Source: Fibrobacterales bacterium
Lineage (GTDB): Bacteria > Fibrobacterota > Fibrobacteria > Fibrobacterales > JAOPTW01
Direction of reading: 5' to 3'
Length of the DNA stretch: 64,000 nt
Assembly (NCBI GenBank): GCA_051532055.1
Contig: JAOPTX010000003.1
Location: 89,064-153,063 of the forward strand
Shown: piece after piece, positions 14,491 through 28,154 of the stretch
How positions within the stretch are numbered: position 1 is the stretch's first letter
Layout of the letters: every line of letters starts with the position of its first letter
Notes under the pieces: model-generated
The model's database searches: none
What the model saw: only the letters and a program-made list of their open reading frames with translations
Told to the model about the DNA's origin: nothing
Position numbers and translations under genes: made by a program

Positions 14491-15981
14491 CTAAATACTA
14501 TACCAACCAGAAACTAATGGTTTTTGGTTGGGTGTAGTATCCATAGTAACAGTCTTTTTGCGACTGTAAGATTTTAGACTATCCAGACCAAGTTCTTTTC
14601 CATATCCACTATTCTTAAAGCCACCAAAGGGAACTTCACTCGAAAATGCCCCATAGGTGTTCACCCAGACCGTTCCTACATTTAAGGCTCTTATTGCGCG
14701 CTGTATATATGCTTGATTATTGGTCCATATTGAAGCGGCGAGGCCATACTCAGAACTATTAGCCAGTGTTATAGCGTTATTAATTGAATTATAAGGCGCG
14801 GTAATCAGAACGGGCCCAAATACCTCTTCATTCCATATATCCATATCCGATGTTACGTTACTTAATATGGTAGGTGGGAAGAAAGCACCTTTTGTAGGTA
14901 TTTCACTCAGTTGGAGTGGGGTTATTCTCACAGCACCTTGGCCAATAGCTTGAGCAACCATTTTTGATACTTTCTCTCTATGGGTTGTACTGATGAGTGG
15001 CCCCATATCTGTTGTGGGTCGCTCTCCTGAGGCTATTACTAATGCAGAGGCTTTCTGTGCAAGAAGCTCGGTAAATTTTTTGTAGATAGATTCATGAATG
15101 AGAAGACGTGATCCTGCGACACACATCTGCCCTTGGTTCATAAAGATGGTTGTTAAAATGGTGCGAGCAGTGCTTTCTAAGTTACAATCTTCACATACAA
15201 TAGTGGGGGACTTCCCCCCAAGTTCAAGAGTAACGGGTGCAAGATTAATTGCGGTGCTCTCTACAATTGCTCGTCCTGTTTTGGTAGACCCCGTAAAGGA
15301 TACTTTAGCGATACCCATATGACCAGTCAGTGTTGGACCGATCTCTTCGCCAATGCCGGTTACTACATTAAGTGCTCCTTTGGGCAGGACTGTATCACTT
15401 AGTTTTTCACACAACGTTAAAAGTGACGCTGAGGTGAGCTCTGATGGTTTCATCACGATAGTATTGCCCGCAGCAAGGGCAGGTGCAATTTTCCACGCGG
15501 CCATTAAGAGTGGATAGTTCCAGGGTACAATCTGTGCAACAACGCCAAGGGGTTCATACTGAGTGTACGTGAAGGTACTGCCGTCTGTAGGGAATGTCTC
15601 ACCCTTAAGTGAGAGTACCAGTGATGCATAGGTTCTAAAAACCTTTGCCGCTTCGGGAATATCAATAAGTGATGACTCTTTGATGGGTTTGCCATTTTCC
15701 TGAGTCTCTATTTGCGAGAGTAACCCTGAGTGCTCTTCAATAACTTCAGCAATTTCCCGTAGGATGTCGGCTCTGTCGTGATACGAAAGTGACTGCCACT
15801 CACCTGAGTAATAGCACTCTTTTGCAGCTGTTATTGCTTTATTGATATCCTCAGGGGTTCCTTGTTGAATAGTCCACAGCAGCGCACCAGTGGCAGGGTT
15901 AATAGAATCAATAGTGTTCTCTGTAGTGCCTGTGCACCACTCGCCACCAATAAAGTGGCCATACTCTTTAGACACGATCAA
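14491..15981 (-). CDS. NAD(P)+-dependent aldehyde dehydrogenase
   Basis: 496 aa. Carries the ALDH hallmarks LELGGKSP (catalytic Glu) and FMNQGQMCVAGSR (catalytic Cys). Overlaps the upstream gene by 14 nt. Confidence 0.9.
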   Translation of the reverse strand: MIVSKEYGHFIGGEWCTGTTENTIDSINPATGALLWTIQQGTPEDINKAITAAKECYYSGEWQSLSYHDRADILREIAEVIEEHSGLLSQIETQENGKPIKESSLIDIPEAAKVFRTYASLVLSLKGETFPTDGSTFTYTQYEPLGVVAQIVPWNYPLLMAAWKIAPALAAGNTIVMKPSELTSASLLTLCEKLSDTVLPKGALNVVTGIGEEIGPTLTGHMGIAKVSFTGSTKTGRAIVESTAINLAPVTLELGGKSPTIVCEDCNLESTARTILTTIFMNQGQMCVAGSRLLIHESIYKKFTELLAQKASALVIASGERPTTDMGPLISTTHREKVSKMVAQAIGQGAVRITPLQLSEIPTKGAFFPPTILSNVTSDMDIWNEEVFGPVLITAPYNSINNAITLANSSEYGLAASIWTNNQAYIQRAIRALNVGTVWVNTYGAFSSEVPFGGFKNSGYGKELGLDSLKSYSRKKTVTMDTTPNQKPLVSGWYSI

Positions 15982-16972
15982 GCTCCTTTACGGGAGCAGC
16001 TTTCCAGAGTTCAAAGATTCGATAGAAAGGAGCGTACCATTTTGAGAGATCGCCTATATGTCCTTTAATGAGTTTTAGTTTTTTCTGACTGGTTGCGGCA
16101 AAAGGATCGAGCCTTCCATTAAAAACATGAATCCAAATTTCTCGTTTACCCATGTTAATAAAATCGGCATCATCATCATTGGTGATTTTTGTAAGGACAC
16201 CTTTATTGAAATGCATGTTGTAGATAGTCCCATCATCAGTGAGTTTAATCGCGTAGCGTGTGGTCAAGTCAGAAGCTTCTCCTAGTGAGAGTGCTTCAGG
16301 GTCATTATTAATGAGGGTCTGTAGTTTTTCAATGTGGGCATCAGTAAAGACCTCATAGCTCTCACTAGGTTTTTCAGGGGCTTCTTCTACTCGTTTTGTA
16401 TTTTGGTGCCCAAGGAGGACTGAATTAAGGGTAATCTTGGCTGCTGATTCTGCAGTGTCAGCCAAAGAATATGCCTCAATGAGGGTTTCACCGGCTGCTA
16501 CGAGACCATGTTTTTCAAGAAAAACTATGGAGCTCGTTTGAAATGCGTTAAGTAGTGCAGGGATGTCGGTCACCGTTGGACTTTTCTGTGCGAGCACTGG
16601 GGGCTTTCCTAAGATGAGTGATGACTCATAGGTGCTTGACTCAAGTTCTCTGTTGCAGTTTAATAGGGATAATAGTGTAGTGGGATGGAGATGGACGACT
16701 GCCTTGTAGCTTTCAGTGTTATAGAGCGCAAGATGCATATCGCTTTCAGTAGAGGTTCGTTTGCTGTTTGGTTCAATTAATGAGCCGGTATTATCGATAA
16801 GAAGTAGGTCATCTTCAGTTATAAAACCAAGTGATGTTTGATGTGCCGTTATTAGAATTTCATTCTCATTAAGGCGACAGGATATATTTCCACCCCAACC
16901 TGAAGTGAGTCCTTTGGTAAAGGCCATTTTTCCGATCTCTATTATCTGTTCTATACAACGTTGTTTGCTCAT
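15968..16972 (-). CDS. Class II aldolase/adducin-family domain fused to a C-terminal SCP2 (sterol-carrier-like) domain
   Basis: 334 aa. The N-terminal approximately 200 aa have a class II aldolase pattern (GNISCRL..., metal-site VVHLHPT, EKHGLVAAGETL). The C-terminal approximately 110 aa (YAIKLTDDGTIYNMHFNKG...DADFINMGKREIWIHVFNGRLDPFAATSQKKLKLIKGHIGDLSKW) match the SCP2 pattern. Confidence 0.7.
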   Translation of the reverse strand: MSKQRCIEQIIEIGKMAFTKGLTSGWGGNISCRLNENEILITAHQTSLGFITEDDLLLIDNTGSLIEPNSKRTSTESDMHLALYNTESYKAVVHLHPTTLLSLLNCNRELESSTYESSLILGKPPVLAQKSPTVTDIPALLNAFQTSSIVFLEKHGLVAAGETLIEAYSLADTAESAAKITLNSVLLGHQNTKRVEEAPEKPSESYEVFTDAHIEKLQTLINNDPEALSLGEASDLTTRYAIKLTDDGTIYNMHFNKGVLTKITNDDDADFINMGKREIWIHVFNGRLDPFAATSQKKLKLIKGHIGDLSKWYAPFYRIFELWKAAPVKELDRV

Positions 16973-26678: not shown

Positions 26679-27892
26679 CGCTCTACGATCATGGGCAGTT
26701 GTGTTAAAGCGTTTGAAACTGTCTCATCAGAGACACAGGTCGAGAGACGAATATATCGTTCAAATCGACTTCCGCCAAATACTGAACCCGGCATATACAC
26801 AAGTGCTGGGTTGCTACTAAAGGCGGCCTCTCGAAAGAGTGCCTCACTCTCAATAGCTTCAGGAAGCTTTGCCCATATATAGAAGGTCCCTTTGGGTGGA
26901 ACTACGGTGAAACCGAGCTCTTGCAAGGTTACCGTAAGGGCATCAGTGTATTCGTTATAAAAATAGCAGCTGGTGTCATCCAGTAACCCGATTTGAGAGA
27001 TTACCTTTTGTTGTATTACCGAGGGGTGTACAACTCTACTTCTTATTCTGAGCCGTAGGGCTTCAAGGAGGGTAGAGCACTCAAGGTCACCTTCATAATG
27101 AGGGTTAACGGCAATATATCCAATCCGTTCTCCCGGGATTCTGAGTGATTTTGAGAATGAATCGACTCGTATTGTTTCACTCCAGAGGAGCATCATTGAA
27201 GGAACCGTTACCGCTGATGGGATAACTCTATCATAGACAGCATCCTCAATGATACTTATTGAGGTACCAGTAGTGAGCTCCATCTCTTTAAGGAGTTGTG
27301 CTAAGTTTTCTAATGAGCTCTCGGAATAAATTGCACCTGTAGGATTGTTGGGAGAATTCAAGAGAATCGCTACACAATCTGCGGTCAATGCATTTCGAAT
27401 GCTGGTACTATTTAAGGAACAGTCATCATTAGTGCTGACTCGTATGACCGTTGCCCCTGCTTGTTCGATGATAGTATCATATTCGACAAAGTGAGGGGTC
27501 AGTACAATCACTTCTGGGGTCGTTTCTCTTTTGGTAGCTCGTTTATTGTCTACAATGGTACTGATGACTGCATCCAATGCGCCTGTAGCGCCGACAGTCA
27601 TGATTACTTGTTCTTGAGTAAAGGGTATGGAAAACCGTTTTTGTAAATCCAGAGAGATTCTATCGCTCGCATCACCACTTCCAAAACCTGTTTGATACAG
27701 AAAGCTATTGTGATCAGTCTCGATCATTTGCTTTGTTGTCGCAAGCAATACCTCTCGATAGTATTGTGGTGGTTTTTCTGCGGGGTTTCCGAGAGATAGG
27801 TCAATTACCTTTCCTGGTGCGTTTTTCACCTGAGAAAAAAGGTCGTAAATTGTCTGGTTATTTTTAACCTGATCAAGTGCGCTTTTTATCAT
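26651..27892 (-). CDS. Class I/II PLP-dependent aminotransferase
   Basis: NSPNNPTG and the PLP-lysine motif SFSKSLRIPGERIGY. I prefer ATG 27892 (AAGGA 8 nt upstream). The track gives a TTG start at 27916. Confidence 0.85.
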   Translation of the reverse strand: MIKSALDQVKNNQTIYDLFSQVKNAPGKVIDLSLGNPAEKPPQYYREVLLATTKQMIETDHNSFLYQTGFGSGDASDRISLDLQKRFSIPFTQEQVIMTVGATGALDAVISTIVDNKRATKRETTPEVIVLTPHFVEYDTIIEQAGATVIRVSTNDDCSLNSTSIRNALTADCVAILLNSPNNPTGAIYSESSLENLAQLLKEMELTTGTSISIIEDAVYDRVIPSAVTVPSMMLLWSETIRVDSFSKSLRIPGERIGYIAVNPHYEGDLECSTLLEALRLRIRSRVVHPSVIQQKVISQIGLLDDTSCYFYNEYTDALTVTLQELGFTVVPPKGTFYIWAKLPEAIESEALFREAAFSSNPALVYMPGSVFGGSRFERYIRLSTCVSDETVSNALTQLPMIVERCTAGVVTP

Positions 27893-28154
27893 GTCCCAAT
27901 TCCTTAAAGCTAACAAAAAGATAGTACAGGTTTGTAATTTGGGACTTATTTGTCATGATATTGGTGTAATGTATGTGTCTTATTTACAGTGCTACCTCAA
28001 ATATTTCTTTTGATTAGTGATAACTATTTTGTGCTGATTAGTAAATGCAAGGGTTTCATAAGTTGACATGGCTTCATTTGTGATTTCAGTTCGTGCTGCA
28101 CTGCGATTCGAGGGTTGATAAATTAATTGAAATGCGCTTGATATCCTTAATTAT

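Follow-up and report, generated by a model that had tools for sequence, protein, structure and literature searches.

A conserved radical SAM and nucleoside-trimming gene module adjoining an acyl-activation cassette in Fibrobacterales, and a candidate pathway for it

We analysed a 64,000-nucleotide stretch of DNA from an uncultured Fibrobacterales bacterium (assembly GCA_051532055.1, contig JAOPTX010000003.1, positions 89,064 to 153,063; hereafter the window), in which a run of minus-strand genes joins a nucleoside-processing set containing a radical S-adenosylmethionine (SAM) enzyme (rSAM) to an acyl-activation and carrier-protein set. Six of these genes, encoding a nucleoside phosphorylase (PNP), an isomerase, the rSAM, a small IF-2B paralogue, an aldolase fused to an SCP2 domain and an aldehyde dehydrogenase (ALDH), constitute a conserved module that is found across phyla. 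Our preferred, and still tentative, reading of the cluster is that the rSAM would make a hydrophobic 5′-C-substituted adenosine, which would be trimmed to dihydroxyacetone phosphate (DHAP) and an aldehyde, the corresponding acid then being adenylated and loaded on an acyl carrier protein (ACP). No published description of the module was found in full-text literature searches, and a review from 2026 on radical SAM enzymes that modify lipids names no such system. The cluster is made up as follows.

14491..15981, minus strand: NAD(P)-dependent ALDH (Pfam Aldedh, 1e-163).
15968..16972, minus strand: class II metal-dependent aldolase with a C-terminal SCP2 domain (Pfam Aldolase_II, 8e-32, and SCP2).
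16969..17481, minus strand: small IF-2B paralogue of 170 aa (weak Pfam IF-2B match, 21.9 bits against a cutoff of 22.4).
17505..19004, minus strand: rSAM of class-B architecture (open reading frame (ORF) 17505-19064, start set at M21 by homologues).
19018..20019, minus strand: MtnA/DrdI-type (5-substituted) ribose-1-phosphate isomerase (Pfam IF-2B, 2e-53).
19970..20761, minus strand: PNP of the hexameric DeoD/Udp class (Pfam PNP_UDP_1, 3e-33).
20762..20991: AT-rich, lineage-specific spacer of 230 nt between the ACP and PNP genes, read from the sequence.
20992..21255, minus strand: stand-alone ACP of 87 aa (Pfam PP-binding, 1.4e-10).
21255..22838, minus strand: AMP2, second ANL-family ligase (Pfam AMP-binding, 2e-40, and AMP-binding_C, 2e-14).
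22835..24397, minus strand: AMP1, ANL-family acyl/aryl-AMP ligase (Pfam AMP-binding, 4e-55, and AMP-binding_C).
24394..25584, minus strand: alpha/beta hydrolase (ABH), FrsA/dienelactone-hydrolase-like (Pfam FrsA-like, 1e-10, DLH and Peptidase_S9).
25557..26678, minus strand: bacterial GRAS-family Rossmann protein (Pfam GRAS, 1.7e-16, 60.6 bits against a cutoff of 27).
26651..27916, minus strand: class I/II pyridoxal-phosphate aminotransferase (AT), an ORF of 421 aa (Pfam Aminotran_1_2, 1e-30).

The ORF listing of the window gave exactly twelve consecutive ORFs between 14491 and 27916, all on the minus strand, and each junction is an overlap of 1-50 nt or a gap of at most 24 nt, the sole exception being the 230-nt spacer at 20762-20991. 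It confirmed the layout drawn in a first-pass annotation of this DNA (twelve minus-strand genes, short overlaps and a single gap of about 230 bp), and the domain that the annotation had given to each of the twelve ORFs was reproduced by Pfam profile search. Of the cluster proteins scanned against NCBIfam, 0/10 reached an equivalog cutoff, the isomerase alone passing a broad subfamily model. All twelve genes are present in a second Fibrobacterales metagenome-assembled genome (MAG; loci L001/L005), in the same order and with 72-97% identity. Because of this synteny, and because dozens of loci of other phyla contain the six-gene half, the arrangement is far beyond chance. The spacer at the ACP-PNP junction measures only 30 nt in L001, a 95%-identical relative, against 230 nt in the window, so the division into two operons is a local feature of the window and not a conserved property: the gap on which that earlier claim was built is real, but the split is not kept in the relative. 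The promoter and terminator scan gave no convincing minus-strand site of either kind in the spacer; these scans gave site numbers fewer than, or not above, those in shuffled sequence and are uninformative. Neither the Rfam scan nor the tRNA scan of the window gave a match.

We fetched 80 genome loci around the rSAM and 80 metagenome loci around the aldolase-SCP2 fusion, and mapped 170+ loci in all, by tblastn with the twelve window proteins and with family hidden Markov models. Counts out of 18 refer to those metagenome loci, anchored on the aldolase, that extend 9 kb or more to either side. PNP is present in 18/18 of them, as are the isomerase of MtnA type and ALDH; the rSAM, an ANL-family AMP-ligase and a ketosynthase (KS) occur in 16/18 each, and an ACP in 11/18. 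In the reverse direction, the aldolase-SCP2 fusion and the isomerase accompany the rSAM in 13/17 rSAM-anchored genome loci. The rSAM, earlier described as embedded in a nucleoside-processing set, is therefore an integral member of the module and its signature enzyme. A general salvage role would leave the set untied to any one rSAM or to biosynthetic genes, and this is not what the counts for rSAM, AMP-ligase and KS show. The records that bear the module are labelled Fibrobacterales, Omnitrophota, Planctomycetota, Pseudomonadota and, in one case, Methanoperedenaceae; the name Latescibacterota is attached only to a single aldolase homologue (P0140), taken by itself. One metagenome scan alone returned at least 456 aldolase-SCP2 loci. 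Altogether, these observations support a dedicated, conserved pathway unit, in line with the initial view that the cluster is unlike standard polyketide synthase (PKS), non-ribosomal peptide synthetase or methionine-salvage loci.

PNP belongs to the DeoD/Udp class and is not of the MtnP type. Its best PDB matches are uridine phosphorylases and the PNP of T. thermophilus. We rejected a uridine phosphorylase identity, since the Udp-specific insertion with its uracil-binding residues is absent and the VSDN motif, which contains the equivalent of DeoD Asp204, is invariant in the family; for the same two reasons the enzyme is predicted to be purine-type. It stays below all NCBIfam cutoffs (the methylthioadenosine (MTA)/S-adenosylhomocysteine nucleosidase model, for instance, gives 43 bits against a cutoff of 169). 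In the window protein and its 58 homologues in the fetched loci, an invariant VDMV occupies the place where DeoD, Udp and MtnN-type enzymes have VEME, the Glu that binds the ribose 2′/3′-OH being replaced by an invariant Val. This replacement suggests an unusual sugar-binding mode or substrate for the family, which is further marked by the invariant motifs NGG, YYV and W-[ST]-T-D-A.

The isomerase passes TIGR00524 (189 bits against a cutoff of 186) and aligns with T. maritima MtnA (1t9k) at 2e-43. Its catalytic Cys158 (in THCN) and Asp230 (in GADR) are invariant in 75/75 family members, and an MtnA/DrdI-type isomerase with both catalytic residues, as a DHAP shunt needs, is thus present. The small IF-2B paralogue aligns with the isomerase over the TETRP...DN segment only. 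Homologues of 141-188 aa lie at the same position in most module loci. Since both catalytic residues are missing, the paralogue is probably a non-catalytic partner of the isomerase.

The aldolase carries E76, H94, H96 and H155, which are invariant in 43 sequences and align with the metal ligands and catalytic Glu of FucA and DrdA; alignment thus showed that the metal-binding His triad and the catalytic Glu are kept. The AlphaFold2 (AF2) model (pLDDT 91.2) has an alpha/beta C-terminal domain, and its top folds are FucA and the 5-deoxyribulose-1-phosphate aldolase DrdA (6btd/6btg). The window protein itself gives a borderline SCP2 match (20.6 bits, cutoff 21.3), and the domain is found in 9/10 family members, with a best E-value of 6.5e-10; the fusion to a lipid-binding-type domain noticed from the window alone is a constant feature of the family. 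In the fold search the best 50 matches all fell on the aldolase domain and none on the SCP2 part, and the SCP2 assignment is drawn from Pfam and predicted secondary structure. The family members are fusions of ~334 aa, not single-domain proteins of ~200-215 aa as in the DHAP shunt, and a sharp score gap sets them apart (at least 225 bits for fused aldolases, at most 66 bits for unfused ones). ALDH reaches no NCBIfam equivalog cutoff, and its catalytic Cys287, Glu253 and Asn155 are invariant in 73/73 family members. With the catalytic residues intact in aldolase, isomerase and ALDH, and the active-site Asp kept in PNP, the module enzymes look active, judging from their sequences.

From these assignments we can propose the following series of reactions. 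In a first step, the rSAM would join C5′ of the SAM adenosyl group to a hydrophobic acceptor, either by addition of the 5′-deoxyadenosyl radical to a C=C bond, as in HpnH and MqnE, or in a cobalamin-mediated manner. PNP would then remove adenine to give a 5-substituted 5-deoxyribose-1-phosphate (step 2), which the MtnA-type isomerase would convert into the corresponding ribulose-1-phosphate (step 3). The aldolase would cut the C3-C4 bond (step 4), releasing DHAP and an aldehyde R-CH2-CHO that keeps ribose C5′ and C4′, while the SCP2 domain would hold the hydrophobic R group. ALDH would oxidise R-CH2-CHO to R-CH2-COOH (step 5), and AMP1 would adenylate this acid and load it on the 87-aa ACP (step 6). 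Finally, AMP2, the Cys-hydrolase, AT and the GRAS methyltransferase might tailor and release the product (step 7); these last steps are the least defined and are conjecture. Steps 2 to 5 follow from the established enzymology of the enzyme families, and it is their action in series that we infer. A hydrophobic substituent is favoured because the aldolase always bears SCP2 and lipid-transport genes are interleaved with the module, and because a fatty-acid-type ANL ligase flanks the module and the six genes can form a self-sufficient operon.

Stated more specifically, and a shade more tentatively still, SAM would here be a two-carbon donor: the class-B rSAM would form a C-C bond between C5′ and a hydrophobic carbon, and the attached nucleoside would be trimmed down to -CH2-COOH. 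The acceptor could be an olefin or, via an adenosyl-cobalamin-like intermediate, even an unactivated C-H bond. Such a general "adenosylate-and-trim" carboxymethylation, or homologation, would operate in uncultured lineages of Fibrobacterales, Omnitrophota, Planctomycetota and Thermodesulfobacteriota/"Deltaproteobacteria". The systems that it would furnish with starter or linker acids are those of the type II PKS-like kind, those based on an ACP and those for outer-membrane lipids.

The first-pass annotation had offered two readings of the cluster, a conservative one in which the nucleoside-processing genes salvage the by-product of the rSAM and a speculative one with an adenosylated hydrophobic intermediate. 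The SCP2 domain and the lipid-transport genes interleaved in some loci fit the second better than the first. Private salvage is weakened by the same two features and yet stays a serious rival, which we consider rather unlikely. According to it, the rSAM is a cobalamin-dependent methylase or a hydrogen abstractor acting on a lipid- or carrier-bound substrate, and the other enzymes clear 5′-deoxyadenosine (perhaps MTA) to DHAP and acetaldehyde, then acetate, as a DHAP shunt embedded in the cluster. It draws on the nearest rSAM folds and sequences, the class-B methylases CysS and TokK that act on pantetheinylated substrates, on the presence of DrdA among the closest solved aldolases, and on the fact that rSAM homologues can stand alone. 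The order PNP, MtnA and class II aldolase is also that of 5-deoxyribose disposal, phosphorylase-started variants included (PMC6079011). What private salvage leaves unexplained is the constant SCP2 domain and the sharply separate aldolase clade, as well as stand-alone six-gene operons next to unrelated genes (L088, L174). It would also mean that five of the ~ten genes in minimal loci of the MMPL type described below serve salvage alone; the ANL ligase that lies beside PNP or ALDH in 16/18 loci is of the fatty-acid type and not Acs, and the PNP, below all NCBIfam cutoffs, is not the MtnP expected for such a role.

The rSAM is the enzyme on which these readings part. It combines an N-terminal Rossmann/B12-type domain with a CX3CX2C core (Pfam Radical_SAM 1e-15; B12-binding 28.2 bits, below the cutoff of 32.1), and the three Cys of its cluster motif CPFGCSFC (C211/C215/C218) are invariant in 53 sequences. 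The family, of ~486 aa, counts 356 homologues at E<=1e-20. The AF2 model (pLDDT 89.5) shows the class-B two-domain fold, with TM-scores of about 0.65-0.69 to known members; the nearest folds are CysS, AprD4, TokK, MgmA, OxsB and TsrM, at 14-19% identity, and CysS and TokK were also matched by sequence at E 2e-13. The best NCBIfam match is BchE (TIGR02026), with 220 bits against a cutoff of 481. We rejected BchE, HpnJ, ladderane and other named rSAM identities, since the NCBIfam equivalog cutoffs are missed by wide margins, and the anammox ladderane cluster as a counterpart, since its gene composition differs. No photosynthesis genes were seen in the window ORFs scanned or in the related loci. 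Because AprD4, a cobalamin-free enzyme of this fold, is as good a match as the methylases, neither cobalamin use nor the reaction type (adenosylation, methylation or other) can be inferred from the sequence or fold of the rSAM.

Several observations weigh against an adenosylating rSAM that feeds a lipid-trimming pathway. Its nearest folds are mostly methylases (CysS, TokK, MgmA, TsrM), joined by OxsB and the cobalamin-free AprD4, and we know of no adenosylating radical SAM enzyme, MqnE and HpnH included, that has a class-B/B12-type architecture. Close homologues of the rSAM stand alone directly behind a TetR-family gene in L023 and L055; conversely, L009 (Ca. Velamenicoccus archaeovorus, NZ_CP019384) is a KS cluster with the rSAM and no module within 10 kb, and L119 and L161 are full-length clusters with no rSAM gene in view. 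The PNP family keeps a conserved N-terminal His, falls in the DeoD/Udp class and is of no recognised 5′-alkyl-specific type, and the SCP2 fold is not always lipid-binding, the C-terminal domain of Eis being an example. As to the stand-alone copies, they are 73-77% identical to the cluster-encoded ones and lie far from module or KS genes (L023:9410-11467 and L055:9411-11467); their neighbours, a TetR regulator, Fur and a peroxiredoxin, give no clue to a substrate.

The same set of nearest folds, with the iterative methylases CysS and TokK and the nucleoside-acting OxsB, would also suit an rSAM that alters a free 5′-deoxynucleoside or adenosine, for example by one or more cobalamin-dependent C-methylations at C5′ or by an OxsB-like rearrangement. 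Trimming would then yield a small unusual aldehyde and, from it, an acid (propionate, isobutyrate or pivalate-type, for instance) as a starter for the ligase and ACP and, where present, for KS and its chain-length factor (CLF). A non-acetate starter unit goes well with the ligase-ACP-KS/CLF context, and the VDMV motif in place of VEME could reflect a modified sugar. We nevertheless regard this as distinctly improbable: a short or polar substrate leaves SCP2 and the MMPL/LolA-like/DUF1302 genes with no role, methylation of 5′-deoxyadenosine has no known precedent, and stand-alone six-gene operons would yield nothing but a trivial short acid.

The genomic contexts in which the module occurs fall into three types, and in most loci an AMP-ligase gene either immediately precedes PNP or immediately follows ALDH. 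This placement speaks for a hand-over of the acid, as do the KS, CLF-like partner and ACP of type A and the ABH-AMP1-AMP2-ACP cassette found again in L173 (see below). In type A (Omnitrophota, Planctomycetota and Desulfobacterota-like records), the locus typically comprises PadR, AMP-ligase, PNP, isomerase, small paralogue, aldolase-SCP2, ALDH and rSAM; a 90-aa protein, an ApbA-like reductase, a 200-aa unknown protein, KS, a CLF-like KS and ACP; and a PF04199 cyclase, SRPBCC, MFS, SDR, a CBM11-like protein, a 131-aa unknown protein and Amidohydro_2, with a class IV aminotransferase in some loci. The first KS has its active-site Cys, which is replaced in the CLF-like second KS. This large, uncharacterised type-II-PKS-like cluster was observed in L085, L046 and L037 and in ~40 other loci (e.g. 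L046:1276-11327) of Omnitrophota and Planctomycetota, and contains four conserved proteins with no Pfam match (about 90, 131, 147 and 200 aa).

In type B, the module and an AMP-ligase are found with an MMPL transporter (sterol-sensing/Patched-like, HpnN-like), a LolA-like/DUF1329 protein and a DUF1302 outer-membrane protein. The MMPL/LolA-like/DUF1302 genes lie in or beside the module operon in L003, L004, L008, L102 and L156, and in L008 the lipid-transport genes are placed between aldolase and ALDH. Two further observations concern individual loci of this type. Upstream of the module in L156 (L156:287-4190) are genes for an ATP-grasp protein (D-Ala-D-Ala-ligase-like), a lysine-2,3-aminomutase-like radical SAM enzyme, an omptin-like and a CBM11-like protein, which hint, by their predicted families, at an amino-acid-conjugated product in that lineage. 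L003 (LR991655.1, 2.5 Mb) is labelled Candidatus Methanoperedenaceae, an archaeon, and carries the module together with the Gram-negative LolA-like, DUF1302 and MMPL genes; the genes for its isomerase and for MMPL are fragmented, which suggests a mislabelled or chimeric record, or pseudogenes.

The transporter set of type B is AmeABCD-like. Such DUF1302/DUF1329/RND sets handle apolar compounds in Castellaniella, have Tween-20/fatty-ester phenotypes in Pseudomonas and are linked to the use of monoterpenes and fatty esters, which is in keeping with a hydrophobic substrate of the module. Such links, together with minimal loci that hold only the module, an AMP-ligase and transport genes and with hosts from uncultured lineages that are presumably mostly anaerobic, might speak for an anaerobic catabolic activation, in which adenosylation and trimming turn imported apolar alkenes or terpenoids into C2-extended fatty acids, then acyl-CoA for beta-oxidation. 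Yet most loci lie inside PKS-like clusters with ACP, cyclases and MFS exporters, the ACP, methyltransferase and aminotransferase genes of the window are typical of biosynthesis, one SAM per substrate is a high energy price, and beta-oxidation genes were not seen nearby. A catabolic role thus appears highly improbable to us.

Type C gathers the contexts of the FCB group (Fibrobacterota with Chlorobiota/Bacteroidota relatives): the window, L001, L173, L088/L092, L174 and L172. In L173 the order is module, Peptidase_U32, MIF, ABH, AMP1, AMP2, ACP and Peptidase_U32, ABH, AMP1 and AMP2 being 45%, 46% and 40% identical to those of the window. L088/L092 and L174 contain the six-gene module alone; conversely, L172 has AT-GRAS-ABH-AMP1-AMP2-ACP and no six-gene module. 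Since the ABH-AMP1-AMP2-ACP cassette is found again beside the module in L173, in another gene order, it is a recurrent partner of the module. The two Peptidase_U32 proteins and the MIF-type tautomerase around this cassette (L173:12564-20479) are an observation apart: Peptidase_U32 is the family of the O2-independent hydroxylases UbiU/UbiV and, with SCP2, L173 recalls the UbiT/U/V anaerobic hydroxylation system.

The twelve genes, first presented as one unit, are consequently not an obligate one: the cassette is found again with the module, but each half also occurs alone. Co-conservation of the two halves holds in L001 and, for the cassette only, in L173; it does not in L172, L088/L092 and L174, and AT and GRAS were seen in Fibrobacterales only. 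In the same way, the six genes do stand without adenylation or ACP genes in L088/L092 and L174, yet they are linked to an AMP-ligase in 16/18 loci and to an ACP in 11/18. That the upstream AT-GRAS-ABH-AMP-AMP-ACP set and the six-gene half are independent and merely adjacent might be argued from the loci where one half lacks the other (L172; L088/L092; L174) and from the 230-nt spacer of the window, but we find this the least probable of the alternatives. Two Fibrobacterales genomes have the halves side by side, and in one of them just 30 nt lie between; ABH-AMP1-AMP2-ACP adjoins the module again, rearranged, in L173; L172 keeps a small IF-2B paralogue directly after ACP; and an AMP-ligase accompanies the module in 16/18 loci of other phyla. 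The paralogue of L172 has 184 aa (L172:8029-8583), and the AMP1 of this locus looks truncated or split.

Among the upstream genes, ABH is the first of the ABH-AMP1-AMP2-ACP cassette. Its nucleophile is a Cys in the invariant GLCMGGG motif, as proposed when it was first called a Cys-type alpha/beta hydrolase, and GLCMGGG, HGxxDNW and HTMPVGEQLHW are invariant in four orthologues, including that of L173 (45% identity). AMP1 reaches no NCBIfam equivalog cutoff; its orthologue in L173 is 46% identical, and the ligases that neighbour PNP in other phyla resemble it (31% identity, 220 bits) more than they do AMP2, which by sequence makes it the candidate activator of the ALDH-derived acid. AMP2 has orthologues in L173 (40% identical) and in L172 (83% identical), with gene order kept. 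The ACP follows AMP2 in L001, L172 and L173, and its translation contains GIDSLG, with the DSL phosphopantetheine-attachment serine. KS/CLF, ketoreductase and cyclase/dehydratase are absent from the window, so that, of the type II PKS set, ACP only is present.

AT and GRAS, seen in Fibrobacterales only among the mapped loci, are local additions to the cluster. The AT gene is present in L001 and L172 and absent from the other module loci, and is thus an accessory gene specific to Fibrobacterales; its translation shows an SFSKS Lys motif. The best NCBIfam match of AT is PRK06836 (270 bits against a cutoff of 376), and since the top models are all true aminotransferases, we rejected a serine-palmitoyltransferase/BioF-type role of the sphingolipid or biotin kind. 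The GRAS gene probably starts at 26654, which gives a protein of 365 aa, and P0121, which NCBI names a GRAS family protein in a Fibrobacterales MAG, matches it at 100% identity along 365 aa; a further hit with 100% identity to a window protein, P0125, comes from the same 262-kb MAG contig. Only 277 representatives were found at E<=1e-3 among 1.84 billion proteins, and identity does not exceed 33% in any homologue from outside the order. The translation contains a Gly-rich LFDTGFKTGG motif, and the protein is probably a SAM-dependent methyltransferase, as predicted from its sequence.

The genes on either side of the twelve-gene cluster contain Fibrobacter-type domains. Immediately downstream of ALDH, a minus-strand gene (7794-14231) encodes a 2145-aa protein with InlB B-repeat (Flg_new_2) domains. 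This protein is absent from the position after ALDH in L001, where the cluster is followed by two small genes (372 and 150 aa) and then by the DUF4423, Fib_succ_major and F5/8-type-C genes that lie at 3758-7126 in the window. On the other side, a 1024-aa hybrid sensor kinase (28155-31229, plus strand), with periplasmic ABC_sub_bind, PAS, HisKA/HATPase and receiver domains, is divergent from the AT gene and is followed by a 1391-aa SNF2-family helicase (31239-35414, minus strand); neither is kept beside the cluster in L001. Farther away, in a low-GC stretch of the window (0.31-0.37 at 42-48 kb), a PLD-like (PLDc_2) protein of the phospholipase D family (47205-48251, minus strand) is found among several ORFs that have no Pfam match (45519-50804).

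SAM is known as a donor of methyl, aminocarboxypropyl, ribosyl and whole-adenosyl groups. If our preferred reading, adenosylation of a hydrophobic acceptor followed by trimming, holds true, SAM would have a new use, in which radical chemistry installs two of its carbons, as a carboxymethyl unit, on hydrophobic molecules in the absence of oxygen. The B12-type rSAM enzymes would gain a new reaction class, and biocatalysis a class II aldolase that is promiscuous and tolerates lipids. A function would also be assigned to unannotated clusters that form a large family of broad phylogenetic spread, many of them being type-II-PKS-like clusters of candidate phyla. If private salvage wins instead, a conserved DHAP shunt that is embedded in clusters and uses a lipid-domain aldolase would still be new and worth explaining. 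The known part of the system is the nucleoside trimming of DHAP-shunt and fluoroacetate type, here recruited to an rSAM and an acyl-carrier system; what is new is that an rSAM would open the route, that the aldolase bears a lipid-binding-type domain and that the acid would pass to an acyl-activation and carrier system.

Compared with known systems, the upstream half resembles starter-acid cassettes. Acid:ACP ligases of the EncN/ApeH type and the VinN/VinM/VinL/VinJ beta-amino-acid cassette of macrolactams bring together a stand-alone ACP, one or two ANL ligases, an enzyme of alpha/beta-hydrolase fold and sometimes an aminotransferase, which ready an unusual acid for a pathway that runs on carriers. 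The two are alike in nothing but their gene content: neither KS nor PKS occurs in the window, and the nucleophile of its hydrolase is Cys and not Ser. The rSAM, for its part, shares its two-domain architecture and fold with the class B enzymes CysS, TokK, OxsB, TsrM and AprD4, two of which, CysS and TokK, have substrates linked to pantetheine or a carrier, but it is only 14-19% identical to them and matches no equivalog model. To our knowledge, co-inheritance with a nucleoside-trimming set has been reported for no characterised class B member.

In the futalosine pathway (MqnE, MqnB, MqnC, MqnD), adenosyl addition by a radical SAM enzyme is followed by base removal by a PNP_UDP_1-family enzyme, and part of the ribose skeleton is kept. 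After base removal, however, MqnC and MqnD act in place of isomerase, aldolase and ALDH, and the product is a naphthoate, with no ligase or ACP involved. For the hopanoid side chain, the radical SAM enzyme HpnH attaches the adenosyl group via C5′ to a lipid olefin, and the PNP homologue HpnG then removes adenine (PMC13459092), which sets a precedent for steps 1 and 2. Unlike the rSAM of the window, HpnH is not a class B enzyme, and hopanoids keep five ribose carbons where the module would leave two. HpnH itself gave no match; HpnJ scored 120 bits against a cutoff of 578 with the rSAM and HpnG 34.5 against 187 with PNP, and a scan of 30 large window ORFs, which reached as far as 53 kb, found no squalene-hopene cyclase. 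The hopanoid system also includes an MMPL exporter of the HpnN type and the aminotransferase HpnO.

The DHAP shunt, or 5-deoxyribose disposal (MtnP or DrdK, MtnA/DrdI, Ald2/DrdA), has three enzyme families and their chemical order in common with the module. Phosphorylase-started variants are described, with an aldolase of broad tolerance for aldehydes (PMC6079011). In the module, the metal ligands of the aldolase and the Cys/Asp pair of the isomerase are conserved, and DrdA is among its best structural matches. It differs from the shunt in its aldolase, always fused to SCP2 and in a separate clade, and in its PNP, a DeoD/Udp-class enzyme whose ribose motif is altered, and not MtnP. Furthermore, the module adds the probably non-catalytic IF-2B paralogue, a dedicated rSAM and ALDH as fixed members, and it sits in ligase/ACP/KS or lipid-transport clusters, not in a housekeeping salvage operon.

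The closest match to steps 2 to 5 is the fluorometabolite pathway of Streptomyces cattleya, which, after fluorinase, proceeds through PNP (FlB), isomerase, aldolase and fluoroacetaldehyde dehydrogenase steps. It leads from 5′-fluoro-5′-deoxyadenosine (5′-FDA) via 5-fluoro-5-deoxyribose-1-phosphate (5-FDRP) and fluoroacetaldehyde to fluoroacetate (PMC7162832). There, too, a SAM-derived 5′-substituted 5′-deoxyadenosine is put to a biosynthetic use and not salvaged, and the same four enzyme families, PNP, isomerase, class II aldolase and ALDH, are all encoded contiguously in the module, with catalytic residues intact. No domain of a fluorinase/SalL-fold SAM 5′-halogenase or hydroxide adenosyltransferase was found in the twelve genes or in the other scanned window ORFs. 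The entry to the module would be the rSAM and not a nucleophilic 5′-halogenase, the substituent would be a hydrophobic carbon and not a halide, and the acid formed would be passed on to the AMP-ligase and ACP.

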